The position numbers and the translations under genes were made by a program. DNA of 64,000 bases from an uncultured delta proteobacterium (lineage in GTDB: Bacteria; Desulfobacterota; Binatia; DP-6), in assembly GCA_963815115.1 (NCBI GenBank), contig CAWFFN010000009.1:1152001-1216000 (forward strand). The letters run 5' to 3'. This document shows positions 28,226 to 62,870 of this stretch, piece by piece (position 1 is the first letter of the stretch; each line of letters opens with the position of its first letter). The notes under the pieces are model-generated. The model worked only from the letters and a program-made list of their open reading frames with translations. It ran no database searches and was not told the origin of the DNA.

Positions 28226-28245
28226 TGTCTTGCCATTCCGTGCCG
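28226..28245 (-). promoter_or_regulatory. 20-bp motif site 1 (CGGCA-CGGA-ATGGCAAGACA), pointing at the AraC gene
   Basis: Reverse complement of tgtcttgccattccgtgccg; matches four other intergenic sites. Confidence 0.65.
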
Positions 28246-28293
28246 CGCCCAACGCCTGGCGCGGGTCGCGGGCCCTGACGCCGTTGCCGTCAT

Positions 28294-28313
28294 TGGCGGA
28301 AAATGGCAAGACG
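28294..28313 (+). promoter_or_regulatory. 20-bp motif site 2 (TGGCG-GAAA-ATGGCAAGACG)
   Basis: Exact 11-mer core shared with 41092, 53225 and 62851; GCTAT 15 nt downstream. Confidence 0.7.
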
Positions 28314-28408
28314 TCTCGCCTTGCGGCGGCTATGGGTGCGGGGCGCATGACGCGCTGCCACCGGACCGCCAGGAGCACCACGCTGGACGTCCGGGCAGGA
28401 GGCGAGAG

Positions 28409-28774
28409 ATGACGAAGGCGAGGACGTTCCTTGCGCTCTGCACCGCAGCGGGAATCGCGACGGCGTGCGCGACCCAGAAGCAGGTCCTCGACACCAGACA
28501 GGACGGCGCCGTCCAGACGGCTCTCCAGCGCGGCCGGTTCGATCTGAACTGTCCGGCAGCCACCGCCACCGTGCTGTCGCGGGACTACATCCAGCCCGCC
28601 ATCCAGGGTCCGTGGGTGAGCGGCCTGCAGCGGGTCGAGTACACGGTCGGCGTCGCCGGCTGCAACCAGCGCACGACGTACGTCGTCATGTGCCAGGTCG
28701 GCACCCAGACCTGCTTTGCAGCGAATCCCGAGGGTCGCTTCCAATCCAATTCAGAGGGTCGCTTCCAGCGATAG
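28409..28774 (+). CDS. hypothetical lipoprotein
   Basis: RBS AGGAGG; lipobox-like ATAC; RGRFDLNCP...GVAGCNQR..Y.V.C. Confidence 0.75.
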   Translation: MTKARTFLALCTAAGIATACATQKQVLDTRQDGAVQTALQRGRFDLNCPAATATVLSRDYIQPAIQGPWVSGLQRVEYTVGVAGCNQRTTYVVMCQVGTQTCFAANPEGRFQSNSEGRFQR

Positions 28775-28802
28775 CGGGCGGCGATCGGGCCGGGGAACCG
28801 CC

Positions 28803-29690
28803 GTGAGCGATCGTCTGCCGGGGTCGTTGCTCCTCCTCGTCTTCGCGCTTCTCCTCCTTCCCGCGGTCGTAGCCGCGGCGACCTTGATGCTCGCGTGCAA
28901 CGATCCCTGTCTGGCGGCCGCACGGGGCACGCATCGGCAGTGCGTCTCGAGCGCGACCGGAGCGTTCCAGGACGCCGTCGACGGCTGTCTCGAACGCGAC
29001 CACGAGTGCGTCGACGCGTGCCGCTCCCAGCGCCAGGACTGCCGCGACGGCACGGGAAGCGGCGCCGCGCTCGCCGCCTGCGATGAGGCGCTCGAGACCG
29101 CCACGCAGGGGTGCCGGGACCGCTTCCCGCTCACGCCGAAGGAGTCGAGGCACCGGCGGGCAAAGTGCATCGACAAGGCCCAGATCGCCAACTTCCGCTG
29201 CAGCAACGAGGTCCATCGGCGCTTCCGGCAGGCGCTGCGGGCCTGCCGGCAGGGGTTCAGGCAGTGCACCGACGCGTGCGGCCCGGGCGGCCCGCCGGGC
29301 GGCACGGCGGCCTGTAGGGATCAGGGCAAGGCGGCGCGCGGCTCGGTGCTCGCCGACTGCAAGCTGACCTTCCAGGTGACCTCGAGCGGATGCATCAACA
29401 AGGACGTCACGTGCGTCCAGGACTGCGGGGACGCCCGCGTCACCTGCGAGGCCCCGACGCGGTCCATTCTCGGGGCGGCGCTCACTGCCTGTACCGCGGA
29501 CGAGGGCGTCGCGGTGGCCGCGTGTCGCGTCGCGAATTCCGCGGGCAGCGCGGCGCTGGACTCGTGCATCACCGCCGCCCAGGCGAATGCGGCCGTCTGT
29601 CGCGATGCCGCCGCCGACGCCGCCGCGCCGGGGCTCGCTGCCTGCGTCCAGCCCTACGTCGCCTGCGTCAGGGCGTGCCCGCCATCGTAG
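28803..29690 (+). CDS. secreted Cys-rich two-repeat protein (27 Cys), possibly a lipoprotein; paralog of 19124..19990
   Basis: GTG start, hydrophobic signal ending MLAC, CLERDHECVDACR, ACRQGFRQCTDAC. Confidence 0.75.
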   Translation: MSDRLPGSLLLLVFALLLLPAVVAAATLMLACNDPCLAAARGTHRQCVSSATGAFQDAVDGCLERDHECVDACRSQRQDCRDGTGSGAALAACDEALETATQGCRDRFPLTPKESRHRRAKCIDKAQIANFRCSNEVHRRFRQALRACRQGFRQCTDACGPGGPPGGTAACRDQGKAARGSVLADCKLTFQVTSSGCINKDVTCVQDCGDARVTCEAPTRSILGAALTACTADEGVAVAACRVANSAGSAALDSCITAAQANAAVCRDAAADAAAPGLAACVQPYVACVRACPPS

Positions 29691-29714
29691 CCGGCAAAAG
29701 GCATGGCAACTTCA

Positions 29715-29819
29715 ATGCCCGTGAACGTGTCGCTCCAGGCCTACGCGAACGCCGTGAAGCCCGACTTCGCCTGCGACTGGCTGCTGCGCTTCCAGATCCA
29801 GTTCCTCTTCCCCAAGTAG
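29715..29819 (+). pseudogene. C-terminal remnant of an outer-membrane beta-barrel gene
   Basis: MPVNVSLQAYANAVKPDFACDWLLRFQIQFLFPK*: last two amphipathic strands only. Confidence 0.5.
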
Positions 29820-29823
29820 AACG

Positions 29824-30660
29824 ATGATGCGCTCGAGCTACACGATGGTAGTCGCGGGTCTGGCGCTCCTCGTCGCCGCGTCGACGGGCTTCGCCGCCGA
29901 GGACGAGCCCGCACCGGGATGGCAGTTCGAGGTCATGCCGTACGCCTGGATTCCGGGAACCTTCGGCACGGTCCAGGTGAAGGGGCGCACCGCCCACGTG
30001 GACAGCACGCTCGGCGACGTCTTGACCCTGCTGTGGCACGGCGATGCGTTCACGGTTGGCGGCTACTTCGGCGCGCGCTACGATCGCTGGAGCTTCTTCA
30101 CGGACGCCTACGGCGGCTTCCTGAACGAGAGCGTGAGCGAGACCATCCCGACCAGGTTCTGCACCCTGCGTGCCGGCGCGACGCTGAAGCTGAGGCCCGC
30201 GATCGTCGACTTCGCCTTCGGCTACGAGCTCGGGCGGTGGTCGATGTCGGAGCGGCAGCGGCCGATCTCGCTCGGCGTCTACCTGGGGACGCGCTACCTC
30301 CACGTCGGCCAGGAGCTCGATACCTCGGTGGCGGTGGTGAACGGCCGGAGCCGCGCCGCCAGCGTCTCCGACGTCGTCAACTCGGCGGACCCCATCATCG
30401 GGGTGCGCTGGGAGGTCCCGGTGCTGGACAGCCTGTCGCTCGACTTCCGCGGCGACATCGGCGGCCTCCCGGCCGACTCGAAGCTCACCTGGGGGATCGT
30501 CGGCGACGTGCGCTACTGGCTCGGCTGGCAGCCGTTCGGCGCCCGGACCTGGCTCGAGGCCGGCTACCGCGTCGTCGCATACCAGCGCGACTTCGGCGGT
30601 GGCAACGACCTCAACCTCCAGCTCCGGGGCCCGCTCCTGGCGATGGGCTTCGGGTTCTGA
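29824..30660 (+). CDS. outer-membrane beta-barrel protein, hypothetical
   Basis: Signal peptide, WQF.V.PYAW, DPIIGVR, RGDIGG, AGYR, C-terminal GFGF. Confidence 0.75.
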   Translation: MMRSSYTMVVAGLALLVAASTGFAAEDEPAPGWQFEVMPYAWIPGTFGTVQVKGRTAHVDSTLGDVLTLLWHGDAFTVGGYFGARYDRWSFFTDAYGGFLNESVSETIPTRFCTLRAGATLKLRPAIVDFAFGYELGRWSMSERQRPISLGVYLGTRYLHVGQELDTSVAVVNGRSRAASVSDVVNSADPIIGVRWEVPVLDSLSLDFRGDIGGLPADSKLTWGIVGDVRYWLGWQPFGARTWLEAGYRVVAYQRDFGGGNDLNLQLRGPLLAMGFGF

Positions 30661-34266: not shown

Positions 34267-34910
34267 TCACCCGACGCTCCGCGTGCGGTGGCCTGAGACG
34301 GCCATGGCCTCGTGGGCTGGCGTCCCGGCGTTCACGAGGTTCGTCACCGCGGAGTGCCGGGTGTTGTGGAACACATAGCCGCCTGCTTGCGGCCGATGGG
34401 AAACCCGGCCTTCTCGCACGCGGTCTCCCACGCGCGCTTGAAGTCGCCGAGGCAGCCGTACTCCTTCGACGGCTTGGCACGGGCCCGCACCGCGGTCCGT
34501 GGAAGACGTGCGGGCAGTGCGGACGGCGCCCGTGCTCGAAGCGGTCTGGATGATGTCGAGGGGACGTCCCGCGAGCGGCAGGACATGCGGCTCGTTCTGC
34601 TTGGTGTCGGTGGCCTGCCAGGTGAGCACCCAGCCCTCGGCGTCCAGGTGCGTCCAGGTGGTGCGGGCAAGCTGCTGCTTCCGGGTGCCGAAGAGGTAGG
34701 CGAACTCGAAGAACTCGCGCAGCTCGGTGGTCGGGAGGTGCCTGTGGATCGCTTCGAAGACGTCGCCCGTGAGGTAGCGGGCGCAGGGACTCGCCTCCCG
34801 CAGGAAGAGGTCGGTGAAGTCGAGGCGGGCGGGATCGAGTCGCAGCTTGCCGAGCCGATAGCCCCTGCGAAGGATTGCCAGACGACGGTTGACGGTGGCC
34901 GGGCTGGTGC
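34267..34910 (-). pseudogene. tyrosine recombinase/integrase remnant
   Basis: PATVNRRLAILRR, AYLFGTRK..L, TKQ.EPH.LPL, FHNTRHSAVTNL..AG, SGHRTRSV then a stop before the catalytic Tyr; N-terminus lost. Confidence 0.8.
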
Positions 34911-35212
34911 CTCCGTGCTGCCCGCCCTGCGTGAGGGCAGATAGGCGCGATGAAGTGCCGATGAAGGGCCTTTTTCCGCGAAGGCTTACCGAACACCCCA
35001 ACTCGGACGTTGACACCGCGCCGAGCCTACTGCCTTGTCTCGACGGACGCCTTGCTCCGACTGAGCTGAACGCTACCCGCAGGGCCGGCAGTCGGGCAAT
35101 TGCCGGACTTGTACAATCCGGGATGGGGAGCACCCTCCCGCGCATCTTGCTGCTTTCTATGACGTTGCGCTATGAACCCCGACTCAGTCACGTCCCGTGA
35201 TGCACGGGAGCG

Positions 35213-35641
35213 ATGCAGAGGAGGAAGACCATGAACAAGGCCGAGCGCTCGACAATGTATTGCGAATACCTCAAGCGGGAAGGATACCGCCCGATCGTTG
35301 ATGAGGAGGGCGATGTCATGTTCAAGCACGAAGGGCGCACATTCTTTCTTCTTATCGACAATGAGGATGACATCTACTTCCGCCTGGTGCTTCCAGGGAT
35401 CTTCTCGTGTGACAAAGAGGAAGATCGCCCCGGAGTCGAGCACGCCTGCATGATGGCGACGGCCAAGACCAAAGTCGCCGCAGCGTACCTGCAGGACACT
35501 CAGGTGTGGGTGTCTGCCGAACTGTTGATTTCCCCGCCCACGGCGTTCGAGAATGTCTTCCAGCGTTCCCTGGGCATCGTTGACGCCGGGGCAAGAAACT
35601 TTGCTGACGCGTTCCGGGAGTGGCTGGCTAACCACGTGTAG
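35213..35641 (+). CDS. YbjN/T3SS-chaperone-like domain protein
   Basis: YLKREGYRPIVDEEGDVMFKHEGRTF; start may be 35231 (RBS GAGGA). Confidence 0.6.
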   Translation: MQRRKTMNKAERSTMYCEYLKREGYRPIVDEEGDVMFKHEGRTFFLLIDNEDDIYFRLVLPGIFSCDKEEDRPGVEHACMMATAKTKVAAAYLQDTQVWVSAELLISPPTAFENVFQRSLGIVDAGARNFADAFREWLANHV

Positions 35642-35673
35642 CTTGCGCGTACGTACCACCACAGCCCGTTCTG

Positions 35674-38600
35674 ATGAAAGAGATACCGAGCAGTGGTGAT
35701 GTCTTCATCAGCTATTCCAGCGCCAACCAGGCGCAGGTGGATCAGATCACTGCCGCCCTGCGTAGCGAAGGATTGACGTACTGGCTAGCGCCGGAGAGCA
35801 TCGCGGCCGGTGACATATGGCCACAAGAGATCGTCGCGGGCATCCGAGGTTCACGCCTTGCGCTTCTCGTTGTGTCCGACGAGTTCTGCGCTTCCCGCCA
35901 TACGCCACGGGAGGTCACCCTTGCTGACAACTACCAGCTTCCACTGCTTCCGATTCGCCTGTCTAGTACCAATCTGCCGCAATGGCTCCAGTACTACCTG
36001 TGTAACTGCCACTGGGTCGACGCTTCAGGGTGCGATCTCCAGCAATGTCTGCCAGCCCTCGCCAACGCCGCACGCAGCTATGTGCGAACGCTCCGCGCGA
36101 CGCGTCGAACGACGCCTCCGATCCCGGACGGCTGCGTGTCTGCAGAGAGCCTCGGTGTTCGGCCACGTGGCCCGCTGCTACGGCTTGTGACGGGGGACCT
36201 TCCAGCTGCCTTGGTTTCCTCGGATAGTCCGAGTGTCCTCTTGATGCCCCACAACGAGTTCATCCCGCTCCTGGGTAGGGAGACGGAGGTGCACGACTTC
36301 ACGGTTCGCTTGAAGGACGCCGGGAGTTTCCGCTGGTGGGCGCTTCTCGGGGAAGCGGGAATGGGGAAGACGCGGTTGGCCCGCGAGTTCATTGGACACG
36401 CCATCAAGATGCACTGGCACGCGGGGTTCCTGGGGATCGAAGACCTTCACAGCTTCGTATCGCATCCGGAATTCCAAGCCTGGCGGCCTTACGTGCCAAC
36501 CCTGATCGTCGTCGACTATGCCGCGGGACATGCACTCAATCTCAAGCGTCTCACATCACACCTGACCGCTCTCGAATCGGAGCACATCGATGGAGTTGAC
36601 GCGAAGGTTCGGCTTCTCCTGATCGAGCGCCACGGAAGCACCGAAGCTGGTTGGCTGCGAGATCTCCTGCAGAGCCCACAAGGCGTCGAACGAGAGCTAT
36701 TCTCTCGCACCTGCCATCTCGATGACCTGGAGCTCCGCCCCCCCTCGCTGGATGGACGGAGCGTAGCGGATGCTCCTGAGACGAGCAGGGAAATCATCCT
36801 GGCAACCTTCAAGTCATGGGCCCGGAGATACGGGCGCCCCGCACCGGACCTCCCAGACCTAAGTAGCCGCGACTGGCTGATGATTCAGTCAAATACGTTG
36901 AACCGACCCCTCTATCTGCAGATGGCCGCGATCAGTGCCTGCGAGGCGATGTCTGCCGAAGATCTTCCCACCTGGGGAAGGGGAAAATGTCTTAGGGATG
37001 CCATCAACCGTGAGCGAACATACATCGGCCAAGCTTGCCGAAACGCCGAGGAACGCGATGCGATCGAACGAATCGCTGGCATCTTGTGCGTAACGGGGAT
37101 GGGGGCGTCGGGGCGTGCGGATTGGATGCGGGAGGTGGCGGACGAGCTAGCAGCGTTGGGCGTAGGGGTAACCGCGTATAGCGAAGAGACGCGACGAAGA
37201 ACGATCTTTCGGAAGCCGGAAGCGACGTCCGAGGAGGCCACTAGTCTCATCCAGCCGGACATTCTGGGCGAAGGCTTCGCAGCAACCGTCCTACCGACCG
37301 AATCGGACAACCCTCCGGTCGGTGCTCTACGGCGGGCGGTCGCGATCGGCGGTCTTTCTGCCTGGGGCAATCTCATCCGTATGGTACAGGACCTCCACGG
37401 CATCGAAGTCAGCGACGAGTCCGGGAGCCGCCGACTCTTATTCAAGGGAATTGAAGACTGGCTACTCCCCTTGCTGGAGTATGCCCCCCCAGAACATCTG
37501 CGCCGTATCCTGGCCCTCTTGCCAGAGCGTTCCGCGTCGCTCAACCCCGTGGGAATCCGCGCAGCGGAACTTCTACTGGGCAACATCGACAGCGACTCCC
37601 GATGGGAACGCGCTGAGTGTCTGCTCGCCCTTGGAATGCACCGCGTTTGGGGGGGGAAGGGCAACGCGCGATCCACGAAGGCCGCGGAAGGCGAGCTTCG
37701 CGAGGCAACTACATTGCTCGCCAGTGCGCAGGTCTCCGGCGAAACGGCCGAGTCCCACCTCCAAGGGGCACGCGCTCACCGGCTTCTTGGGATGGTGCTC
37801 TCGGATCAGAATGACACCACCGGTGCAATTCGCGAATCCACCTTGGCTGGCTTCCGCGCCCTCGGCGAGATCGTAGAGCCTGCACGCATGGAAGCTGATG
37901 TCCGAAGGCTGCTCGACGCTCAGCCACCGGACCTACCGGCCCTCGCGGTAGAGTTTGCCAACGCCCTCAACAATCTTTCGATCGACCTCCGCTTCAGCGG
38001 CCGATATGGTTTGGCGATTCGCTGCGCTCGCGCCGCAGTGTCGACTGGCGAGATCCTGGTTGCCGCTGGGCACCGGGGCTATCTCCCATACCTCGGTAGA
38101 TACGCAAACAACCTCGCGATCGCCCACGAGCTTCGGAGAGAGCCAACCGATGCGCTGGAGGCTGCCCGGCAAGCGGTTCAGCTTGCGCTGAACGAGACCC
38201 GCCCGGATCAATTCAGGTCCCTTGGGCTCTGCCTGGATCATCTCTTTACATTGGAAAAGGCAGAGCGCACTTGGTCAGCCGCTCATCTAACCGCCTCGCG
38301 CGCCGTCCGTGTGTACAAGGAACTGTTCCAGCGAGCCCCAGAGCAGTACAGCGCTTCTTTGATCCGCGCACAACGAAGACTTGCACAAGCGCAACGCAAC
38401 GCGAGCGTTGATGGTCTCGGTCAAGACTTGGATGCGGAGACCGATGCCCTTCTAGAAGCGGAACTCCACTCGGGTCGCATCTCTGTTGCGGAGGCCGCCG
38501 CTTCGTGGAGACAACCCGCGTTTCCCCGCGAGGTATCCGATCCCCACGCATTGGGTGTAATAGAGCATGGGAAGGCAATGGAGTTCGGCGATGCGGGGGA

Positions 38601-39752: not shown

Positions 39753-39811
39753 GCCGTGGCCCCCCGGCGCCAGAATTCCCGCCGCCCGTCGTGCGTCTAA
39801 CCGTGAACCCG

Positions 39812-41029: not shown

Positions 41030-41091
41030 CCGCCACCGGAGATCCACCCGAGCTCGAGAAGGAGCCCGGGCCGATCCGCGCATGGGAGCAG

Positions 41092-41111: not shown

Positions 41112-41158
41112 AGCCGGCGCTTGAGATGCAATACCGAGGCAGCGTAGAGGGAGCGACC

Positions 41159-41602: not shown

Positions 41603-41613
41603 GAGGCGGGATC

Positions 41614-51268: not shown

Positions 51269-51786
51269 CCACCCTGCTCCGGCTGCTCGGCGTGTTCGGC
51301 CTCCTGTCGGTGCTGGCCGTCGGCGGGGGGCTCGCGGTGCTGCCGGAGATGAAGAAGCTCACCGTCGAGCAGTATCACTGGGTGACCGCCGATCAGTTCG
51401 TCGACTTCTACAGTCTCGGGCAGATGGCGCCGGGCCCGAACATGGTCATGGTGGCGCTCATCGGCTACAAGGTGGCCGGTCTCGCGGGGGCGCTCGCCGT
51501 CCTGGTCGCGTTCTTCCTGCCGGCCAGCCTCCTGACGTTCGGCGCCAACCGCCTGTGGCATCGGTTCTCCGCGTGGCCCTGGCGCGAGTCGATCCGGCGC
51601 GGCCTCGCGCCCGTGACGGTCGGCCTGATGACCGCGGGAGTGATCAGCATCGGCAAGGTGGCGATCGACGCCGTCGGTACGTGCGTCCTCGCGCTCGTCG
51701 TCACGGTGATCCTGCTCACCACGCGGGTGAACCCGGCGCTGCTCATCCTGGGGAGCGCCATCGCGGGCTGGGCGCTTCTGCGCTGA
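51265..51786 (+). CDS. short-chain chromate transporter (CHR), subunit 2
   Basis: LSVLAVGGG, GQMAPGPN, GLAPVTVGL. Confidence 0.9.
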   Translation: MTTLLRLLGVFGLLSVLAVGGGLAVLPEMKKLTVEQYHWVTADQFVDFYSLGQMAPGPNMVMVALIGYKVAGLAGALAVLVAFFLPASLLTFGANRLWHRFSAWPWRESIRRGLAPVTVGLMTAGVISIGKVAIDAVGTCVLALVVTVILLTTRVNPALLILGSAIAGWALLR

Positions 51787-51792
51787 ACGACG

Positions 51793-53223: not shown

Positions 53224-53224
53224 A

Positions 53225-53244
53225 TGGCGTGAGATGGCAAGACG
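53225..53244 (+). promoter_or_regulatory. 20-bp motif site 4 (TGGCG-TGAG-ATGGCAAGACG)
   Basis: Intergenic, upstream of 53353; GCTAT 15 nt downstream. Confidence 0.7.
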
Positions 53245-53352
53245 CCCTGCCGGTCCCGGGCTATCCCGCCGTGAGAAGGTGGCGACACACAGCGTAAGCG
53301 ACTAGACTCCGGGGACGATCCGGGGTGCTCGAGCCCGGCAAGGGTCAGGAGG

Positions 53353-54783
53353 ATGAAGATGCATCTCAGGTGCTCCACATCGCGTGCGATCGGCCTGTCC
53401 GTGTTCGCCCTCCTGGCGTTTGCCTCGCTGGCGAGCGCCTTGCCGGTCGAGCTCAAGGATCAGAACGGCACCCGGTATTCGATCAACACCCAGGTCGATC
53501 CCCTGCTGCGGGATTCGAACGCCTCGGGAGCGATCACCGACGCGACCTACAACAAGGCCGTCACGGTGACCAGCTACTTCGTCGGCTTCACGCCGTTCGG
53601 CTTCTTCCTCACCACCTACACGGTTCAGCGACAGATCAACGTCCCCCTGACGAACGCCTTCGCGGGCTTCAACGGGCTCCTCATCACCGGCGCCAACGGT
53701 GTCGCGCTGCCCGCGCCCATCGTCTTCAATCCCGGGCAGCCGGCCGCCTCGGACACCGGTTGCATGCAGAATGGCCAGAGCCGGCAGCTCATCTTCGCGA
53801 CCCAGGGCAGCCCGGCGTTGAACGCCGCCAACCTCTCCGTGACGCGCAAGGTGTTCGTGCCGAACAACTCCGACTTCGTCCGCTGGCTCAACATCGTGAC
53901 CAACACGGGCTCCACGCCGCAGCAGGTCGGCATCACCCTGGACGGCCTGCTCGGCGCCGGGTCGAACGTCAAGATCGGCACCACCTCGAGCGGCGACACC
54001 ACCGTCACGGCCGGCGACACCTGGTTCACCAGCGGGCAGAAGGTGCCCCAGGGCACGCACTCCACCCAGCCGACGGTCGGCTTCGTCATCCAGGGCGACG
54101 GTGCGACGACGCCGGCCCGCTCGGCCAGCGTCAACAGCGTCGGGCAGGCGATCGTCACCTACACGCCGACGATCCCGGCGGGTGGCACGGTGATCATCAT
54201 GACGCTCACCACCGTGCAGGGCAACTTCAAGATGGCGAAGAACGAGACCTCGAATCTCGCCGCCCTGCCCTCGGACACCATCAAGTGCATGAGCGAGCTC
54301 GAGCTCTCGCAGGTAGTCAACTTCGCGCCCATCACGCCGCCGGTGACCAAGAACGCGACCATCACGCTGAAGTTCAACAAGACGGGACAGGACACGGTCC
54401 AGTGGAAGGGCAAGATCACGATCGCCGCCGGCATCAACCTCCAGGGCATCCCCCTCACGGTCGACGTGGGCGGCGCCCGGCAGAGCTTCACGCTCAACAA
54501 GAGCGGCAAGGCGAACAACGGCGGCGGCAACAAGTTCGCCTTGAACGCCAACTTGAAGAACGGCGTGACCAAGGCGGGCACGATCAACTTCTCGTTCAAC
54601 CTGAAGGGGGACTTCCAGAGCCTGTTCGCTCCGTTCGGTCTGACGAATGTGACCCAGAAGAACGTGCCGGTCACGGTGCCGCTGAGCTTCACCGTCGGGA
54701 CGGCGCAGCACTTCTACGCCACCGATCAGCCGTTCAACTACAAGGCGACCGAGGGGAAGACCGGAACGGCGAAGAGCTCCTGA
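53353..54783 (+). CDS. secreted beta-rich hypothetical protein
   Basis: RBS AGGAGG, signal peptide (ASA-L), Thr/Asn/Gly-rich, strong codon bias. Confidence 0.8.
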   Translation: MKMHLRCSTSRAIGLSVFALLAFASLASALPVELKDQNGTRYSINTQVDPLLRDSNASGAITDATYNKAVTVTSYFVGFTPFGFFLTTYTVQRQINVPLTNAFAGFNGLLITGANGVALPAPIVFNPGQPAASDTGCMQNGQSRQLIFATQGSPALNAANLSVTRKVFVPNNSDFVRWLNIVTNTGSTPQQVGITLDGLLGAGSNVKIGTTSSGDTTVTAGDTWFTSGQKVPQGTHSTQPTVGFVIQGDGATTPARSASVNSVGQAIVTYTPTIPAGGTVIIMTLTTVQGNFKMAKNETSNLAALPSDTIKCMSELELSQVVNFAPITPPVTKNATITLKFNKTGQDTVQWKGKITIAAGINLQGIPLTVDVGGARQSFTLNKSGKANNGGGNKFALNANLKNGVTKAGTINFSFNLKGDFQSLFAPFGLTNVTQKNVPVTVPLSFTVGTAQHFYATDQPFNYKATEGKTGTAKSS

Positions 54784-56954
54784 GCACGCGACGGCCGACG
54801 AGGCGCCGGGCTGCACGGATCGTCGCGCTCGGCGCGCTGCTTGCGCTGGCGATCGTCCCGGGGTGCCGCCGCCACGATCGCCCGAACGTCCTCCTCGTCA
54901 CGATCGACACGCTGCGCGCGGATCGGCTGGGGTGCTACGGCTTCGGCCTGGCGCACACCCCCGCGGTGGACGGTCTCGCGCGCGACGGCGTGCGCTGCGC
55001 CGACGTTGCGACCTCGGCGCCGATCACGCTGCCGGCGCACAGCTCGATCATGACCGGGCTCTATCCGCCGGCACACGGCGTCCGCGACAACGGCAACTAC
55101 GCCCTCGGGCCCGAGGCGGTGACGCTCGCGGAGCGCTTGCAGGCGGCGGGATACCGCACGGGCGCCTTCGTGTCGGCCGCGGTGCTCGCCCGGCGCTACG
55201 GCCTCGATCAGGGATTCGAGGTCTACGACGACGACTTCTGGTCGGAGGACGAGCCGCAGATGTTCATGATCCGGGAGCGGCCGGCGTCGCGCACCGCGGA
55301 CCGCGCCCTGGCCTGGCTCGACGAGCAGCACGACGACCGGAGGCCGTTCTTCCTGTGGGTGCACTTCTTCGACCCGCACCAGCCCTACAACCTGCGCTCG
55401 ATCGACCTGGCGGCGCTCGCGCCGACGCCGTACGACGCCGAGATCGCCGAGGCCGACCGCGGCGTCGGCCGGTTGCTCGACTGGCTGCGGCAGCACGGCA
55501 AGCTGGACGACACGCTCGTCGTCCTCACCGCCGACCACGGCGAGAGCCTGGGCGAGCACGGCGAGCCGACGCACGGGGTGTTCATCTACGACTCCACCGT
55601 CCGCGTGCCGCTCGTCTGGCGGCTCCCGCGCGTCTTCCCGTCGGGCCGCACCTACGATGGACCCGTGCGCCACATCGACCTGGTGCCGACGATCCTCGGG
55701 ATTCTCGGACTCCCGGGGGGCGAGACGACGCAGGGCGCGAATCTCCTCGCCGCGCTCCAGGGACGCACGCCCCCGCCCGACCTCCCCCAGTACGCGGAGG
55801 CCCATCTCGCCGAGGAGGGTTTCGGGATGGCGCCGCTGTCCGGCGTGCGCCACGATGGGGCCAAGTGGATCGAGGCGCCGCACCCGGAGCTCTACGACCT
55901 GCGCCGCGATCCCGCGGAGCTGCAGAACCTCTATCCCGCGGAGGCGGCGGCCGCGCGCCCGCTCCAGGGTGCGCTCGAAGCCGCCGTGGCCGACAGCAAG
56001 GGGCACGCGCTGAGCGCGCCGACGCGGGAGATCGACCGCGAGACCGAGGACATGCTGCGCGCGCTCGGCTACCTCGCGCCGCCCGAGCAGCGCGCCGAGA
56101 TGGGCGGGATGGACCCGAAGGACGGCATGGCGCTGTACGCGAAGCTGCAGGAGGCTCGCGACCGCGCGCAGCAAGGCGAATGGGACCGTGCCAGGGAGCT
56201 GCTCTCGCAGGTGCTCGACACGGCGCCGGAGAACGTCACCGCGCGCAACCTCCTGGCGCTGGCCGCGGTGCGGCGCGGCGACTACGACGAGGCCGAGCGG
56301 CAGTACCAGGCATCACTGGCGAAGCAGCCGCGCCAGCACCGCGTCTTCGGTGCGCTCGGCGCCCTCGCGCTCCGTCGTGGCGACCTCGACGCGGGCGAGC
56401 GGCGCTTCCACGAGGCCCTCGACCTCGCGCCGAGCTACGTCGAGGCGATGAGCAACCTCGGCTGGGTCGAGGCGGCTCGCGGCAACGAGGCCGGCGCGCA
56501 GGCCTGGTACGAGCGCGCCATCGCCGCCGACCCGACCTACCCGCACGTCTATCGGCGACTGGCCGACCTGTACTACGACCGCAAGGACTGGGCGCACGCG
56601 CTCGAGTACTACCGCCGTGTGCTGACGGCGCTGCCGCGGTTCTTCGAGGTGCTGATCCAGGCCGGCAACAGCGCGCGCTTCCAGGGCGACACCCGGACGG
56701 CGGACGCGTACTACCGCGAGGCCGCCGCCGTGCGCGAGGATTCGTGGATTCCGCCCTACAACCTCGCCTGCCTGCGGGCGCTCACCGGCGATCCGCAGGC
56801 GGCGCTGATCCTGCTCGGTCAGGCGATCGACCTCGGGTTCGGGGGTACGACGCTGCTCGAGACCAACGACGACTTCGACACCGTTCGCCCGCTTCCCGGA
56901 TGGCCCGAGTTGACCGCGAGAGCGAGCCAGGTCGCGCGCGCGAACCGGCGGTGA
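54780..56954 (+). CDS. sulfatase-like (alkaline phosphatase superfamily) lipoprotein with C-terminal TPRs; start codon unclear
   Basis: PNVLLVTIDTLRAD, TLPAHSSIMTG, FDPH.PY, ADHGE, then TPR repeats and YNLAC; 3' part of ORF 53325..56954. Confidence 0.85.
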   Translation: MSTRRPTRRRAARIVALGALLALAIVPGCRRHDRPNVLLVTIDTLRADRLGCYGFGLAHTPAVDGLARDGVRCADVATSAPITLPAHSSIMTGLYPPAHGVRDNGNYALGPEAVTLAERLQAAGYRTGAFVSAAVLARRYGLDQGFEVYDDDFWSEDEPQMFMIRERPASRTADRALAWLDEQHDDRRPFFLWVHFFDPHQPYNLRSIDLAALAPTPYDAEIAEADRGVGRLLDWLRQHGKLDDTLVVLTADHGESLGEHGEPTHGVFIYDSTVRVPLVWRLPRVFPSGRTYDGPVRHIDLVPTILGILGLPGGETTQGANLLAALQGRTPPPDLPQYAEAHLAEEGFGMAPLSGVRHDGAKWIEAPHPELYDLRRDPAELQNLYPAEAAAARPLQGALEAAVADSKGHALSAPTREIDRETEDMLRALGYLAPPEQRAEMGGMDPKDGMALYAKLQEARDRAQQGEWDRARELLSQVLDTAPENVTARNLLALAAVRRGDYDEAERQYQASLAKQPRQHRVFGALGALALRRGDLDAGERRFHEALDLAPSYVEAMSNLGWVEAARGNEAGAQAWYERAIAADPTYPHVYRRLADLYYDRKDWAHALEYYRRVLTALPRFFEVLIQAGNSARFQGDTRTADAYYREAAAVREDSWIPPYNLACLRALTGDPQAALILLGQAIDLGFGGTTLLETNDDFDTVRPLPGWPELTARASQVARANRR

Positions 56955-56996
56955 CGCGGGCTCTGCGGCGCTCTTCGCTCGAGGAACGGGGCACGC

Positions 56997-58022
56997 CTAC
57001 TGATCGAACGCGAAGATGCGCTTCCAGTCGTTCTTCATGCTGATGACGGTCCAGCCCTTCTTCTTCGCTTCGTCGTAGAGCGCCTGCGTGAAGGTGCCGA
57101 CCTTCGTGTCGGGCAGCCCCTGGGCGGGCCCGTAGGCATACTCGCGCTGCCCGTCGTCGTGCAGCACCAGCATCTCGAGCCGCGCGCCGTCGCCGGCGCC
57201 GGTGTACTCCAGCATCTCCCGGTCGCCCGTCGAGTTGCCGAATGCGGCGTGGGGCCGGCGGCCGATCATCAGGTGGATGCCCTCGGGCTTGCCGGCGTTA
57301 TTGTCGTTCAGGAGCAGCCTGGGCTCCTTGGTGAGGAACGGCTTGCCATCCTTGTCGTAGCCGTACTTGGTGCCGCCGGCGGTGCCGACGACCTGCTCGG
57401 GCGGGATGCCGTACACCCGCTCGGCGTACACGCGCACGAAGTCCTGGCCGCCCCCGGTGACGATGTACGTCTTGTAGCCGTTGGCACGCATGTACTTCAG
57501 GACTTCCTGCATCGGCAGGTAGGTGAGCTCGGTGAACGGTCGCTTCCAGCGCGGGTCCCTGGCCGCGTCGAGCCACTTCTTCGCCTCGGCGCGGAACTCC
57601 TCCACCGACATGCCGGTGAGCGTCGCGGCGAGGATCTTCTCGAGATCCTTCATCGTGAACTTCGCCATCGCCTCGCGGTTGCCGGACAGCACGGTCTTGA
57701 ACGGCTCGACCTTCGCGAGCTCCGGCTTCGCCTTGACGACTGCCGGCACCCGCTCCAGGCAGTACACCACCTGCGTGTACATCGGGTGCGACACCCACAG
57801 CGTGCCGTCCTGATCGAAGGTGGCGATGCGCTCCTCCGGCGGTACGAACTTTGGGCTGCCCGGCGCCGTGGTCACCTGCACGAACTCGAGGATCGCCTTC
57901 TTGACCGCGCCGTCGTTCCAGGAAGGCAGGGGATCGGACTGCGCGAAAGCGTGCGGGCTCGCCAGCGAGGCGACGAGTCCCAACACGGTTCCGAATCGGC
58001 GCAGAGTTCCCTCGAGTCCCAT
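56997..58022 (-). CDS. secreted HAD family hydrolase (nonspecific acid phosphatase type)
   Basis: LPSWNDG, ATFDQDGTLW, IVTGGG, GNSTGD, SMKNDW. Confidence 0.9.
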   Translation of the reverse strand: MGLEGTLRRFGTVLGLVASLASPHAFAQSDPLPSWNDGAVKKAILEFVQVTTAPGSPKFVPPEERIATFDQDGTLWVSHPMYTQVVYCLERVPAVVKAKPELAKVEPFKTVLSGNREAMAKFTMKDLEKILAATLTGMSVEEFRAEAKKWLDAARDPRWKRPFTELTYLPMQEVLKYMRANGYKTYIVTGGGQDFVRVYAERVYGIPPEQVVGTAGGTKYGYDKDGKPFLTKEPRLLLNDNNAGKPEGIHLMIGRRPHAAFGNSTGDREMLEYTGAGDGARLEMLVLHDDGQREYAYGPAQGLPDTKVGTFTQALYDEAKKKGWTVISMKNDWKRIFAFDQ

Positions 58023-58052
58023 GTCGAATCCCTCCTTGCTCTCGCCCTCCGA

Positions 58053-59675
58053 TCAGTTTTGCGGCGACGCGAGACTTTCCAGCTCGTGCAGGCGTTTCAT
58101 GGCGTCCATCGCCTTCAGCGAGTCGTAGTTGATGCCCGCGGCGTTCAGGCTGGTGCCCTGCTGGAACGGATACTGCGGCAGGGTCATCAGGAACTCCTTG
58201 AGCTTCTGCTGCACCGGCACGAACAGCCAGATGTTGTCCGCATACCAGCGCAGGTACAGGCCGGACTCGTGCGGCGCCTTCTCGAACGGGTCGGCCCGCA
58301 GGTTGACGATCACGGGCCAGCCGGGCACGTCCCTGACCGCGGTGGCGATGTTCCCGTTGGTCACCGCGAAGTGGACCTTCCAGTCGTTCCAGCGGACGGC
58401 GTTCAGCTCGCCGCCCTGGCCGAAGTAGTAGATCTCCTCCCGCGGACCCTTCGGGGCCTCACCCTTGAAGAACGGCAGGAAGTTGTAGCCATCGGGATGC
58501 ACCTTGAACTTCTTGCCGTTGGCCGCGTACCCCTGCTCCAGCTTCCCGACGATGTCCGGCTCGCCCGCCGCCGCGAGCAACGTCGGCATCCAGTCCTCCT
58601 GCGACATGATGTCGTTGATCAGCGTTCCCGGCTTGATCACCCCCGGCCAGCGCACCAAACAGGGCACGCGGAAGCCGCCCTCCCAGGTGGTGCCCTTCTC
58701 TCCGTGGTACGGCGTCGTGCCACCGTCCGGCCAGGTCCCGGTCTCGGCGCCGTTGTCGGTGCCGTAGATGACGATGGTGTCGCCGGCGATGCCGAGGTCG
58801 TCCAGGTGCTTCAGCATCTCGCCGACCATCTTGTCGTGCTCCACCATGCCGTCGGGGTAGAGACCGATGCCGGTCACGCCCTCCGCCTGTTCGCTCAGGT
58901 GCGTCCACACGTGCATGCGCGTGGTGTTGAACCACACGAAGAACGGCTTGTCCTGCTGGTGCGCAGTGTCGATGAACTTCGTCGCCGCGGAGAAGAACTC
59001 CCGGTCCGCGGTCGGCATCCGCGCCCGGGTCATCGCGCCGGTGTCTTCGATCTTCTGCCCGCCTTTGCCGTCGCTCCAGGTGTGGAGCACGCCGCGCGGA
59101 CCGAACTTCTTCCTGAATTCAGGATCCTTCGGGTAGTAGTAGGTTTCGGGCTCTTCCTCGGCGTTCAGGTGGTAGAGGTTGCCGAGGAACTCGTCGAACC
59201 CGTGCATGGTCGGCAGGTGCTGGTCGCGATCGCCCAGGTGGTTCTTGCCGAACTGGCCGGTCGTGTATCCCTGGGCCTTCAGCAGATCGGCGATCGTCGG
59301 CGACCAGTCGGGGATCCCCTGCGGCGAGCCCGGCATCCCGATGGTCAGCATTCCGGTGCGGAACGGATGCTGGCCGAGAATGAACGCGGCGCGGCCGGCG
59401 GTGCAGCTCTGCTGGCCGTAGAAGTCGGTGAACAGCGCGCCTTCCTTGGCGATGCGATCGATGTTGGGCGTTCGGTAGCCCATGCCCCCGAGGTTGTAGG
59501 CGCTGACGTTGAAGATGCCGATGTCGTCGCCCCAGATGACCAGGATGTTCGGCTTCTTGCCGGCCTGTTGCGCCCGCGCGGGCTCGGCCCGCAGCAGCAT
59601 CCCGACCGCCAGGAGCAAACCCATCGCAACCAATCCGGCCGCGCCTCGGAGTTTCGTTGCTTGCCGTTGTCTCAT
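58053..59675 (-). CDS. arylsulfatase
   Basis: KPNILVIWGDDIG, SCTAGR, GKNHLGD, EGGFRVP. Confidence 0.9.
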   Translation of the reverse strand: MRQRQATKLRGAAGLVAMGLLLAVGMLLRAEPARAQQAGKKPNILVIWGDDIGIFNVSAYNLGGMGYRTPNIDRIAKEGALFTDFYGQQSCTAGRAAFILGQHPFRTGMLTIGMPGSPQGIPDWSPTIADLLKAQGYTTGQFGKNHLGDRDQHLPTMHGFDEFLGNLYHLNAEEEPETYYYPKDPEFRKKFGPRGVLHTWSDGKGGQKIEDTGAMTRARMPTADREFFSAATKFIDTAHQQDKPFFVWFNTTRMHVWTHLSEQAEGVTGIGLYPDGMVEHDKMVGEMLKHLDDLGIAGDTIVIYGTDNGAETGTWPDGGTTPYHGEKGTTWEGGFRVPCLVRWPGVIKPGTLINDIMSQEDWMPTLLAAAGEPDIVGKLEQGYAANGKKFKVHPDGYNFLPFFKGEAPKGPREEIYYFGQGGELNAVRWNDWKVHFAVTNGNIATAVRDVPGWPVIVNLRADPFEKAPHESGLYLRWYADNIWLFVPVQQKLKEFLMTLPQYPFQQGTSLNAAGINYDSLKAMDAMKRLHELESLASPQN

Positions 59676-59791
59676 CTTCCGTTCCTCGTTCGCGGCATGA
59701 GCCTCACGGTGCTTCGCCCGACTCCGACTTCGGGAAGAGGAGGTGCCTCCACGTCCCGCGGTCCCGTGACCATGACGCTCGCCTCGCGCCA

Positions 59792-61489
59792 CTAGTCGCT
59801 CGCGTGACTCGCGTTGGCCTTCTTGACCTGCTCCAGGATCTGACTGAGGTTGTACGACTCGGGCGCCTGGAGCGGGGGGAACTTCTCGTACGACGACAGC
59901 TCCTCCATCCACAGCTGCTGCCCGATGGGCAGCATGTTCCAGTCGTACTGGAACGCGGTCATCGGAGCGCCGAGCGCACCCCCCAGGCTCATGGCCGACT
60001 TCTGATCGATGCCGACCGACTGCTCGAAAGGATCGCGCTTGACGTTCTGGACCAGCGTGAAGTGGAACGGGACGAGCGGCATGATCCAGCCGGCCGGCCC
60101 GGGCTGCGACATGTTGTAGTACATCTTCCAGTTCTTGTAGCGGACCGCGGACGGCGTGGCCCCGGAGAAGTAGAAGAAGTAGTCGCGCGCCGACTGGTCG
60201 TTCTTGCCCTCCAGGTAGTCGCGCTGATCGACCCCGTCGAGCGTCGTCTTGACGATTCCAGAGTACTTCCCCGCCTCGATCTGCTGCTTCAGCCCGTCGC
60301 CCCTGGGGCCGCCGGCGATGTCGACCAACGTGGGGAGCCAATCGAGGGCGGCAAACAGCTGGTTCTTCACCGTGCCCGGCTTGATGTGGCCCGGCCAGCG
60401 GACGACACACGGGGCGCGGTAGCCGCCCTCCCACGCCTCGCCCTTCTGGCCCTTGAAGGGCGTGACCCCGCCGTCGGGGAAGGAGATCGCCTCGGCGCCG
60501 TTGTCGGTGGTGAACACCACGATGGTGTTGTCGAGCTGGCCCATGTCCTCCAGCTTCTTCAAGACGACGCCGATGTTGTCGTCCATCTGCTTCATGCCGG
60601 CTTCGTTGACGCCCCAGTCCTTGCCGCCCTGCACGCCCAGCATGGCCTCGTACTTCGGCGACAGCACGGTCACGACGTGCATGCGCGCCGGGTTGTACCA
60701 GACGAAGAAGGGCTTGTTGGTCTTCTTCGGGTCGTTGCGGTCGAGGAAGTCGACGACCTTCGCCGAGATCTCCTCGTCCACCGTCTTCGACCGCTCGAGC
60801 GTCAACGGGCCTTCGTCCTTGCACGTCTGGTTCTTCTCGGTGCCGTCGGAGGAGTTGCACCAGATGACCGGGCGCGGGGGCATCAGGCAGAGCGTCGTCT
60901 TCTGGTCCACGGCACCCGGCACCTCGGGCAGCCCGGGGACCGGCGTGTTCTTGCACGGTGGCGCGACGCCTTGCTCGGTCGGGCTCTTGTTGATGTCGGG
61001 GAAGCTCACCTGCTGCATGGCGTCCAGGTGGTACAGGTAGCCCCAGTACTCCTGGAAGCCGTGCGCCGTCGGCAGGGACGCGGTGTGGTCGCCCAGGTGG
61101 TTCTTGCCGAACTCGCCGGTGTTGTAGCCGAGATCGAGCAGGAACTTGGCGACCGCCGGAGTGCCGGGGCGCAGGTAGGACGGGCTTCCCGGCAGCTGCG
61201 GCGGGATCATGCCCGTGCGCAGCGGATACATCCCCGTGAAGAAGGCATTGCGCCCGGAGGTGCAGCTCTGCATGGCGACGTAGTCCATGAAGATCGCGCC
61301 CTCGTTCCCGATGCGGTCGATGTTGGGGGTTTCCCCGACCATCAGGCCGCGGTGGTAGATGCTCGGCTGCATCCAGCCGATGTCGTCGCCCATGATGAAG
61401 AGGATGTTGGGCTTGTCGTCGGCGGCCGCGGCGCGGGTCAGGCTGCACACCCCGGCGGCGAGTACCAGGAATGCAAGCAACGTTCTCAT
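59792..61489 (-). CDS. arylsulfatase
   Basis: KPNILFIMGDDIG, SCTSGR, GKNHLGD, EGGYR.P. Confidence 0.9.
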   Translation of the reverse strand: MRTLLAFLVLAAGVCSLTRAAAADDKPNILFIMGDDIGWMQPSIYHRGLMVGETPNIDRIGNEGAIFMDYVAMQSCTSGRNAFFTGMYPLRTGMIPPQLPGSPSYLRPGTPAVAKFLLDLGYNTGEFGKNHLGDHTASLPTAHGFQEYWGYLYHLDAMQQVSFPDINKSPTEQGVAPPCKNTPVPGLPEVPGAVDQKTTLCLMPPRPVIWCNSSDGTEKNQTCKDEGPLTLERSKTVDEEISAKVVDFLDRNDPKKTNKPFFVWYNPARMHVVTVLSPKYEAMLGVQGGKDWGVNEAGMKQMDDNIGVVLKKLEDMGQLDNTIVVFTTDNGAEAISFPDGGVTPFKGQKGEAWEGGYRAPCVVRWPGHIKPGTVKNQLFAALDWLPTLVDIAGGPRGDGLKQQIEAGKYSGIVKTTLDGVDQRDYLEGKNDQSARDYFFYFSGATPSAVRYKNWKMYYNMSQPGPAGWIMPLVPFHFTLVQNVKRDPFEQSVGIDQKSAMSLGGALGAPMTAFQYDWNMLPIGQQLWMEELSSYEKFPPLQAPESYNLSQILEQVKKANASHASD

Positions 61490-61521
61490 CGGAGTCTCCC
61501 TCCTGCGCTCCTCGCAGCGCC

Positions 61522-61953
61522 TCATGGCTTGATCTTCATGTTCACGCCGTTGGCGCCCAGGGTGAACTTCAGGCCCTGCGTGGTGGTCACGAGCTCCACC
61601 CGGACGCCGTTCTGGTTCTGCATCGCACTCACGCCGCCGCCGCCTGCGACCGTCGCTCCGGCGGCAACGCCGGTGTAGTTGCCGTTGAAGTCCTCGAGCT
61701 TCTTCAAGCCGTAGACTTTGCCGGACGCGCTGATCTTGCTGATGCCGGCGTCACCGACCGAGAGTCCGTCGACGGAGATGGGATAGGTCTTGCCCTTGTA
61801 GCTGAGCGTGCCGCTGCCCCAGCTGATCCCGATGCCGGCCGCCACCGAATCGGCATGCAAGCTGATCGTTGCATCCGGCGTCGATGCGGCCCGGGCCAGA
61901 TCGAGCGTCAGGGCCAGCAGGCCGACCATCATCAGTGTCACGAGACGTTTCAT
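61522..61953 (-). CDS. DUF1134/EipA-like secreted protein
   Basis: Signal peptide; GIGISWGSGTL.YKG, GLSVG, VY.LK.LEDF.GNY, MQNQNGV. Confidence 0.7.
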   Translation of the reverse strand: MKRLVTLMMVGLLALTLDLARAASTPDATISLHADSVAAGIGISWGSGTLSYKGKTYPISVDGLSVGDAGISKISASGKVYGLKKLEDFNGNYTGVAAGATVAGGGGVSAMQNQNGVRVELVTTTQGLKFTLGANGVNMKIKP

Positions 61954-62081
61954 GCCAATCCTCATTTGTTTTCCGAGGCCCATCATGTTGCAGCGAGATC
62001 CGACCGGCCGCAGCCGTATCGGAACGATGACCAGGTTGTTCTCGGAATGGCGGCGCGCGGCCCCCGGCACCGAGGGGGTTC

Positions 62082-62512
62082 TCATGCGGGAATGCGCCGC
62101 CCCGGCCCCCGGTCGCGCGAAGCCGCCGGAACTCGCGCGGCGCGAGGCCCGTCCAGCGTGCGAAGGCGCGCGCGAAATGGGCCGGATCGGAATACCCGAG
62201 GTCGAACGCGACCTCGATGACCTTGCAGGCTGGCTTCTCGAGCATCCGCTGCGCAACCTCGAAGCGGGCCCGCGCGACGACGCGCGCGTAGGTCACGCCC
62301 TCGTCGGACAGCCGACGCTGGAGCGTCCGGGCACTGAGCCGCATCATCTTGGCGACGGAACGGACGTCCGGGTAGCCGCCCGGGAGCAATCTGGTGACGA
62401 GCTGCTGCACGACGCCGCCGAGCCCGGGTGTTTCGCCCGCTCCCCCCGCCCGCGGTGACCGCCGGGCCTGCGGCAGCAGGTGACCGGGCATCGCTTCCGG
62501 ATCGCAGCCCAT
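62082..62512 (-). CDS. short (HTH-only) AraC family regulator, paralog of 27764..28165; stop uncertain
   Basis: SARTLQRRL..EG.TY, EVAFDLGYSDPAHFARAFARWTGLAPREFR; ORF runs on to 61751, overlapping the next gene, possibly from an indel. Confidence 0.75.
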
Positions 62513-62518
62513 CGCCCG

Positions 62519-62785
62519 CTACTCGCTCTTGCCCGTGACGCCTTTGCCGCCCGGCCGCAGCTGCTCGACCCACGCGAGCCCGCGTGTTTCGGCGACGAGG
62601 TTGAACCGCAGCTCCGGGGGTGCCGCCAGGTCGATGACCAGCGACTCCAAGCGCAAGTTCACCTCGTCTCGAGGGCCCCCGCCCGCAGTGTCCGACGAAT
62701 CCGTCATCTCGGGCCAGGACCCCCCTGCGCCGCCCACCAGCTCGACGCCGAAGGAGTCCTTGGCCCATCGTACGATCTTAAGCAA
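62519..62785 (-). CDS. small hypothetical protein
   Basis: 88-aa ORF directly upstream of and co-directional with the AraC gene; no recognised motif. Confidence 0.35.
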   Translation of the reverse strand: MLKIVRWAKDSFGVELVGGAGGSWPEMTDSSDTAGGGPRDEVNLRLESLVIDLAAPPELRFNLVAETRGLAWVEQLRPGGKGVTGKSE

Positions 62786-62850
62786 GCACCTTCGCCGCTA
62801 CGGACGCGACGGCTCGGCGTGTTTGCGAGATCGACGCGGGCGGGCACGCG

Positions 62851-62870
62851 TGTCGCGACATGGCAAGACG
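62851..62870 (+). promoter_or_regulatory. 20-bp motif site 5 (TGTCG-CGAC-ATGGCAAGACG)
   Basis: Intergenic, upstream of the DUF3300 gene and divergent from the second AraC locus; TGCTAT 10 nt downstream. Confidence 0.7.

Follow-up and report, generated by a model that had tools for sequence, protein, structure and literature searches.

In the MarA, SoxS, RamA and Rob group of AraC-family proteins, members reduced to their helix-turn-helix (HTH) region (HTH-only, about 100-135 aa) work beside a sensor-bearing relative on a shared asymmetric site of about 20 bp at the -35 region of class II promoters. A class II layout with a non-optimal -35 is described for SoxS (PMC9638938), and a site overlapping the -35 by 4 bp for RhaS (PMC9429829). 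A comparable arrangement is proposed for the DNA analysed here (the window: 64,000 nucleotides, positions 1,152,001 to 1,216,000 of contig CAWFFN010000009.1, assembly GCA_963815115.1, from an uncultured delta proteobacterium of the Binatia), which carries five intergenic copies of a 20-bp motif and two HTH-only AraC genes, AraC1 (27764-28165, minus strand) and AraC2 (61751-62512, minus strand). We consider it probable, with good confidence, that the motif is the class II operator of the PF12625-type AraC clade to which these genes belong; neither this operator nor the regulon, whose sensor-less paralogs form an unusual set, appears to have been described. The system would work like MarA, SoxS and Rob without being a member of their group.

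AraC1, with 133 aa, has the size of MarA, SoxS and RamA. Residues 17-56 of AraC2 (query numbering) align with SoxS 66-105, and E26 and D30 of AraC2 fall on SoxS D75 and D79 in the first helix of the second HTH (HTH2). These two acids contact sigma70 region 4, and D79A is among the most defective substitutions at class II promoters (PMC9638938). The first-pass annotation had drawn a parallel with MarA and SoxS and with the SoxS induction of E. coli pqiA, which serves here as an analogy only. The profile scores place both window proteins in the PF12625 branch, that of QhpR, CdpR and VirS: the SoxS and RamA models gave 19-33 bits compared with 103-178 for QhpR, and AraC1 reached 30-33 bits against cut-offs of 174-180. 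Moreover, the site sequence, the N-terminal PF12625 sensor of the clade, the cargo and the hosts differ from those of MarA and SoxS, and one of the two types of HTH-only paralog described below (type A) lacks the D79 equivalent.

QhpR (NF049968), the regulator of the amine dehydrogenase operon qhp, is the best NCBIfam match and shares the layout PF12625 plus HTH_18; the scores were 178 bits for a full-length relative, below the cut-off of 250, and 103-108 for the HTH-only proteins. The window AraC proteins lack the N-terminal PF12625 of this class, and their HTH groups with full-length members. The recognition helices are not those of QhpR (SE[TVL]SAFSRAF versus SD[PH]AHFTRAF). Only 1/10 true QhpR loci had a motif core of at least 11.5 bits, no qhp genes were found among the annotated neighbours, and the accessible parts of the qhp literature give no binding site (PMC5023235, PMC7876137). 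The nearest solved structures, CdpR (PA2588, PDB 5CHH) and VirS (Rv3082c, PDB 8RCX), belong to the same two-domain family, with another HTH2 helix and, in the accessible sources, no HTH-only partner. The footprinted site of CdpR, CTGCGCCTGGATGAT, is a different 15-mer (PMC4847859).

Likenesses of the site itself come from elsewhere in the AraC family. AdpA of Streptomyces has the site TGGCSNGWWY, of which HTH1 is proposed to read TGGCS (PMC3372375), and ArgR of Pseudomonas has TGTCGC-N6-GNAA (PMC10963909). In comparison, 47 of 72 sites collected from relatives (see below) begin with TGGCS and 71 have G-N-AA at positions 13-16 as in ArgR, whereas only 16 match TGGCSNGWW and a single one a full ARG box. 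AdpA and ArgR act as dimers on paired sites; here the sites are single, strict and tied to the -35. The N-terminal domains of AdpA and ArgR are also different from PF12625.

All five window sites were found where the first-pass annotation had placed them, gene calls (hexamer model; 85% coding; Pfam annotation) and sequence agreeing that they are intergenic and oriented with the downstream gene, 48-115 nt from called starts. The site at 28294-28313 (plus strand; 29.6 bits) precedes a predicted lipoprotein operon and is followed by the -10 TATGGG at 28331-28336. The divergent site at 28226-28245 (minus strand; 26.5 bits), which has a C at position 1 and the -10 CACGAT at 28208-28203, lies 60 nt upstream of the AraC1 ATG at 28165. 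Two further sites are at 41092-41111 (plus strand; 32.4 bits; weak -10 CAATAC at 41129-41134), before a channel-pqi-sulfatase run, and at 53225-53244 (plus strand; 31.4 bits; -10 TATCCC at 53262-53267), before the gene of a 474-aa secreted protein. The fifth, at 62851-62870 (plus strand; 24.9 bits), is a TGTCG variant before DUF3300. The -10-like sequence announced for all plus-strand sites does begin 17 nt on at 28294, 53225 and, weakly, 41092, as it does at the divergent site; at 62851 the TA stands just 13 nt downstream, 4 nt short, so that four of the five sites have a fitting spacing, and the 62851 promoter is possibly weakened. The proposed closeness to both AraC loci held for AraC1, whose divergent promoter is flanked by two sites; the 62851 site, near AraC2, points away from it.

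In the whole source genome (6.89 Mb, 12 contigs, ~70% GC, completeness 100%) the exact string ATGGCAAGACR occurs nine times, five of them within the window (binomial P ~8e-9 for a window taken as fixed, a post hoc calculation). A matrix built from the five window sites found eight genome matches of at least 20 bits, seven intergenic and two of these new; the better new match, at C8:79242, lies 80 nt upstream of a third HTH-only AraC gene (the C8 paralog). With a matrix from the relatives' sites, the window sites are within the genome's top six and the sixth precedes this third paralog; all six matches of at least 22 bits are intergenic, and 13 matches reached at least 15 bits compared with none for the reversed matrix. 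Further candidates are C7:883597 (20.9 bits; the orthologous gene in the relative G001 has a site) and C12:595431 (21.7 bits). A weak match at 19010 (plus strand; 14.6 bits), which is directed at the 3' end of the gene for a Cys-rich paralog, was left uncounted. The motif is not part of a larger repeat: flanking columns carry ~0 bits, and the repeat families shown (20 direct, 25 inverted) hold no site. A dispersed repeat or mobile-element end was rejected as an explanation, there being no similarity beyond the core and no inverted ends or hairpin.

The shape of the motif was derived from 72 non-redundant intergenic sites in 13 related genomes (7 further matches inside called genes were set aside). 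Their consensus is TGGCG-CgRA-ATGGCAAGAC-G, the matrix having been seeded with the window pattern, so that the core columns are ascertained and the downstream TA is not. Conserved blocks cover positions 1-6 and 9-19, TGGC is repeated at 10 bp, and there is no palindrome. The 4-nt spacer, which had been described as free, has C in its first position and A in its last in 54/72 sites each. Beyond the motif, the only conserved feature is a TA 17 or 18 nt downstream, present at 42/72 sites (55/72 if CAnnnT is allowed) versus 0.9% per position elsewhere. Since this spacing equals that after intergenic TTGACN in the source genome (n=657; TA at 17 in 103 and at 18 in 164, other offsets 5-22), the last six bases, AAGACR, would stand in the -35 position of a class II promoter that depends on an activator, with GAC kept and TT replaced. 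The geometry thus backs the earlier proposal of an asymmetric AraC-family site overlapping the -35. A consensus sigma70 scan of 40500-57500 found no promoter at the motif, as expected for a weak -35. The next gene is on the same strand at 64/72 sites.

At seven of the 72 sites the orientation is away from the following gene, and some of these seven run into an AraC or sulfatase gene at its 3' end (L077:12248, L072:5825, L084:5176). Backward class I sites exist among marboxes, and the away-facing sites may, by analogy, serve the gene on the other side. At two alphaproteobacterial loci (L145:2501-2550 and L310) a second TGGCGCGAAATG follows 12 nt after the site and covers the expected place of the -10.

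The position at -35 with a fixed spacing to the -10, together with the resemblance of TGGCA to the -24 element of sigma54, could also mean that an alternative sigma factor, extracytoplasmic function (ECF) or sigma54, recognizes the motif as its -35 region, with no activator needed. We regard this as highly improbable. The -10 is just TA, as at the TTGACN promoters of the genome, and conservation extends 14 bp upstream of the hexamer; the GG-N10-GC spacing of sigma54 was found at 0/5 window sites and 1/72 of the relatives' sites, and the association with AraC genes would be left unexplained.

This association was followed in a class sample of 301 genomes. At least two strict sites were present in 11/14 family relatives with a close AraC compared with 2/10 without. 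Of 50 plasmid homologs of a full-length relative, the best four belong to Rhizobium, Leptolyngbya, Synechocystis and Agrobacterium; all four AraC genes lie 10-200 nt from a site whose TA follows at 17 nt, near DUF1254, DUF2092 or sulfatase genes. In Bradyrhizobium (L145) an exact copy of the motif stands beside a clade AraC gene, at a distance in the same range and likewise with TA at 17 nt. At the metagenome loci L236-L241, TGGCG-CGAA-ATGGC adjoins tandem AraC genes whose cargo is a CoA-transferase and aconitase X; the sequence after GGC is variable there, which fits the tail being a -35 and not operator. Because clade genes of the five named genera, two of them cyanobacterial, have the site next to them, and clade genes with different targets have it too, it would track one PF12625-type AraC clade rather than the cargo. 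Outside the Binatia, 80 of 88 AraC rows were compared (8 dropped for short flanks; metagenome rows carry no taxon), and a core of at least 11.5 bits within 400 nt was found at 16/22 close and 13/58 distant AraC genes (controls 0 and 6), the split at 83 bits being post hoc and the rows related, so that this reads as a trend and not as a P value. In the same way, the site score declines with distance from the clade's HTH (Spearman 0.36). The wider PF12625 family may read related sites, as the distant hits suggest. Searches by pattern were less specific: a strict-pattern contig scan returned at least 120 stretches, mostly chance, of which 3/120 had an AraC-like flank match and only Bradyrhizobium L145 a clade member; exact 11-mers in other Binatia families (G020, G029, G030) lie mostly inside called genes, and multi-match genomes also occur in other families (e.g. 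G262, G163). In one relative the AraC cluster is present in near-identical triplicate (L007, L008 and L009, at G003:C15, C16 and C17), as strain variants or a repeated island.

The 10-bp period of the TGGC repeat might instead point to another direct-repeat regulator reading TGGCG...TGGCA, for example of OmpR/PhoB type, the AraC genes being passengers or targets. Overlap with the -35 is also typical of the OmpR/PhoB family. Other regulators do occur in the clusters, namely a LuxR-type HTH, an NtrC-like pair and a GAF-AAA enhancer (G075) and a Crp/Fnr protein (Agrobacterium); none of this kind is common to the loci examined, however, and the site adjoins an AraC gene in three phyla, also with unrelated cargo, its score falling with distance from the clade HTH as described above. 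This alternative appears very unlikely to us.

Conservation upstream of targets pointed in the same direction as the AraC association. Homologs were picked by protein search alone in 25 genomes of the family, and a site was counted from 15 bits upwards within 400 nt. It was present before secreted-protein homologs at 11/24 loci (one more had too little flank, and several are within-genome duplicates), before DUF3300 homologs at 11/30 loci (30 of 44 matches were obtained as loci) and before lipoprotein homologs at 4/10 loci, the source genome's own included; the reversed-matrix control gave 0 at these loci. Five genomes without a detected clade AraC had a site at 1/10 such target loci; in a separate comparison, five AraC-negative genomes gave 2 relaxed matches and 3 control matches. 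The site is thus kept upstream of part of the homologs, and with the co-location with one AraC clade across phyla this upholds the core of the AraC-regulon proposal of the first-pass annotation, as far as sequence comparison goes. Among relatives the cargo is shuffled from genome to genome; the genes behind their sites encode BON, HdeA-like, PPK2, DUF3604, DUF2092, AI-2E, outer-membrane efflux and bestrophin-like proteins as well as EipA, PqiA, sulfatase and the ATP synthase a chain. In the last case (L101:944, G170) the site lies 90 nt upstream of the a-chain gene, perhaps of an accessory ATPase operon.

We propose that the first 15-16 bases (TGGCG-CgRA-ATGGCA[A]) would be the operator, contacted by an AraC monomer through HTH1 at TGGCG and through HTH2 a helical turn beyond it. 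AAGACR would be a crippled -35 (TTGACA with TT replaced), and the bound AraC would sit against sigma70 region 4 and activate a class II promoter whose -10 lies 17-18 nt downstream. The predicted regulon is a mobile exported-protein set (lipoproteins, PqiABC, sulfatase-fold enzymes, DUF3300/DUF2950/DUF1254 and channels) plus a small HTH-only AraC gene, and in most relatives the full-length, sensor-bearing AraC is the likely master. We infer binding, activation, operons, the activating paralog and the signal from the sequence. VirS is acid-responsive. The inducer here may be envelope or acid stress, judging from the cargo (HdeA-like, channels, PqiABC, lipoproteins, PPK2), or a sulfate ester or other substrate, the two being about evenly balanced.

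The source genome differs from most relatives in its regulators. Full-length relatives (339-354 aa; G002, G003, G010) combine PF12625 and HTH_18, whereas the source genome has no sensor-bearing clade member and only three HTH-only ones: it gave no PF12625 match, and no match to four N-terminal domains. In G001 the clade members are likewise HTH-only and the single PF12625 protein is distant. AraC1 would be a real short gene, because its closest homologs (mostly 131-141 aa, among 137 found in the searched range of 73-233 aa) share its length and N-terminus. The C8 paralog is 59-63% identical to the window pair; just upstream of it and its site, on the opposite strand, C8:79030-79176 (L437) encodes a truncated piece of an AraC HTH2 that probably stems from a former divergent partner.

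A tree of 42 HTH domains separates two types of HTH-only protein. Type A comprises AraC1, the C8 paralog and copies in G001, G002, G003, G008, G010 and G075, and has a site upstream in 8/9 rows, the ninth being degenerate; type B comprises AraC2 and copies in G001, G018 and G181, lies inside the full-length group and has no site (0/6 HTH-only proteins). AraC2 nests with the full-length G002/G003 proteins (98/89) and AraC1 stands at the base of the same group (84/91). AraC2 has an acid at both sigma-contact positions and AraC1 none at the SoxS D79 equivalent; indeed, this second position is D in 21/21 parsed full-length and type-B rows (3 unparsed) and in 0/9 type-A rows, 8/9 of which have Arg immediately before it. 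Of 119 parsed short AraC1 homologs (at least 2 of them mis-parsed), 115 lack the acid and 97 have the Arg. In type-A sites the first base is mostly C or G rather than T, and the -10 resembles CAnGAT. Together these features suggest that type A is a late, weak or competing paralog; it keeps the first acid and is one lineage, and the full-length Agrobacterium and Bradyrhizobium proteins also lack the second acid, which counts against this. Selection on type-A genes receives weak support from nonsynonymous (pN 0.16-0.36) and synonymous differences (pS 0.41-0.56), uncorrected and near saturation. The suggestion that both AraC proteins drive one programme survives as a regulon of one clade; AraC1 and AraC2 probably play different parts in it, to judge from tree and sigma contact. 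At three alphaproteobacterial loci (L309-L311) a different HTH-only gene, with other recognition helices, stands beside a full-length gene and a strong site; a pair of full-length and site-driven HTH-only genes appears to have arisen separately there.

These types might form a three-tier AraC circuit on one operator (full-length activator, type-B relay, type-A damper), which we put forward only as a tentative possibility. The full-length PF12625 sensor would activate. Type B, behind a GAF-AAA enhancer and sigma54 promoter, would pass a further signal on from sigma54 to sigma70 promoters without binding a ligand itself. Type A, which is in turn a target and has a weaker site and -10, retains the two recognition helices and has the second sigma70-contact acid swapped for a neighbouring Arg; it would compete for the operator and damp the response.

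Part of this arrangement seems to have been lost before AraC2. The type-B genes of G001 and G018 are preceded by the gene of a GAF-AAA sigma54 enhancer, by a promoter with GG-N10-GC (recognized by eye) and by an ABM-like gene. The window instead has a 62-aa chimeric open reading frame at 62519-62707 (minus strand) in which the start of the enhancer gene (32 nt, 84-88% identical) is joined in frame to the end of the ABM-like gene (71 nt, 79%); a search of the rest of the source genome found neither the N-terminal part of this enhancer nor the ABM gene. We read the frame as the scar of a deletion of the enhancer and sigma54 promoter present in relatives, which would have removed the sigma54 input, so that AraC2 and the EipA-sulfatase-HAD run now follow the promoter that belonged to the enhancer itself. 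Because no sensor-bearing member is present, the activator in the source genome would have to be HTH-only, the most likely candidate being AraC2, whose expression would now start at the promoter left by the deleted enhancer gene; otherwise the regulon is decaying.

Such decay, with operators that are AraC sites but relics and a silent or dwindling regulon after loss of the sensor-bearing member and the sigma54 input, is in our estimation rather unlikely, though it accounts for several features: the lack of PF12625, the in-frame deletion before AraC2, the 120-aa read-through tail of AraC2, the truncated fourth HTH on C8, the mis-spaced -10 at 62851 and a total of only 6 strong sites, compared with up to 12 in relatives. 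On the other hand, the five sites score 25-32 bits, as high as those of relatives, three HTH domains are intact, and G001 also retains sites with HTH-only clade members alone.

Several observations weigh against the reading of the motif as operator of a working clade regulon. The window enrichment is weaker when one mismatch is allowed (6 matches, a number reached by 1/100 shuffles, the sixth, at 57339, falling inside the HAD gene), and the core columns were ascertained through the seed. A site is missing before over half of the target homologs. G018 and G181 have a clade AraC and 0 strict sites, with one variant each ~2.6 kb from the AraC gene, and G015 and G016 have sites and no clade AraC that we found, in fragmented assemblies. 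Outside the Binatia, the split into close and distant proteins was post hoc, and the 13/58 distant PF12625 proteins with a similar site mean that it is not exclusive to the clade. Finally, AraC2 is a 253-aa frame whose 120-aa read-through tail overlaps the EipA gene by ~200 nt; with the mis-spaced 62851 promoter, this may mean that the circuit is non-working in the source genome.

Four predicted target runs in the window have a site, in line with the target list of the first-pass annotation; DUF3313 and the EipA (DUF1134) operon, which it named for an enrichment check, do not. The first run (28409-30660, plus strand) encodes a 121-aa lipoprotein-like protein (28409-28774), a 295-aa Cys-rich protein (28803-29690) and a 278-aa protein (29824-30660), none of the three with a Pfam or NCBIfam match. 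The second (41159-48899, plus strand), which we infer from gene spacing (gaps of at most 69 nt) to be co-transcribed, encodes two small uncharacterised proteins, an Ion_trans_2 channel (42139), two PqiA (42861 and 43511), a PqiB with three MlaD domains (44145), a PqiC-like ABC_trans_aux protein (45722) and a sulfatase (46386). The third (53359-56954, plus strand) consists of the 474-aa secreted protein, of a cluster without Pfam family that is commonest in Binatota (ESM Atlas), and a sulfatase-TPR protein; for neither this protein nor the Cys-rich one did the ESM Atlas suggest a function. The fourth (62946-64000, plus strand) is DUF3300, which continues to 64325, with DUF2950 and DUF1254/DUF1214 genes beyond the window. 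The EipA (DUF1134)-sulfatase-sulfatase-HAD run (56997-61953, minus strand), downstream of AraC2, has no site; in G018 and G181 the sigma54 cassette contains the same sulfatase genes, placed after the type-B AraC. For DUF3313, no site was found within 350 nt in the window or at 5/5 homologs in the fetched loci.

A literature search by topic (the motif string itself was not searched) found no description of this gene set with an AraC protein, nor, among the papers listed, of AraC in Binatia, in agreement with the first-pass annotation, which knew of none; the alkyl-sulfate operon of PMC3346939 is unrelated. No member of DUF3300/DUF2950 is characterised according to the one paper found on them (PMC4653623), and few published operators were found for the PF12625 branch. 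The operator and promoter layout proposed here is testable, and it concerns an uncharacterised exported-protein cassette (DUF3300/DUF2950, DUF1254/DUF1214, DUF2092, DUF3604, sulfatase-fold enzymes, PqiABC) that extends from Binatia as far as rhizobia and cyanobacteria. As site and regulator are also present in cultured hosts, the inducing signal and the role of the cassette could be reached with a single reporter. If true, the split of HTH-only proteins into relay and damper would be a new wiring of AraC proteins, and the three-tier circuit a negative-feedback use of sensor-less AraC, unlike the activating MarA and SoxS, over a widespread cassette.

Some other genes of the window deserve mention. 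A full-length serpin gene (39803-41029, plus strand) lies directly upstream of the 41092 site. A 288-aa protein encoded at 19124-19990 (minus strand) is 35-38% identical to the Cys-rich targets of relatives and has no site upstream. The gene at 49834-50718 (plus strand) shares 43% identity with a site-bearing gene of G001; C7:883707-884648, with the 20.9-bit site and preceding a FUSC-like gene, is its closer homolog. Between the DUF3313/BamE-like genes and the serpin, a stretch of lower GC (34267-39042; 62-64%) with a phage-integrase-family frame (34267-35145, minus strand) and a 1122-aa TIR-AAA-TPR frame (35674-39042, plus strand) is inserted and looks like a small defence island. The stretch 24090-27843 holds SGNH/SxtJ-like and carbamoyltransferase frames, the C-terminal domain of the carbamoyltransferase being split over two frames at ~27390.

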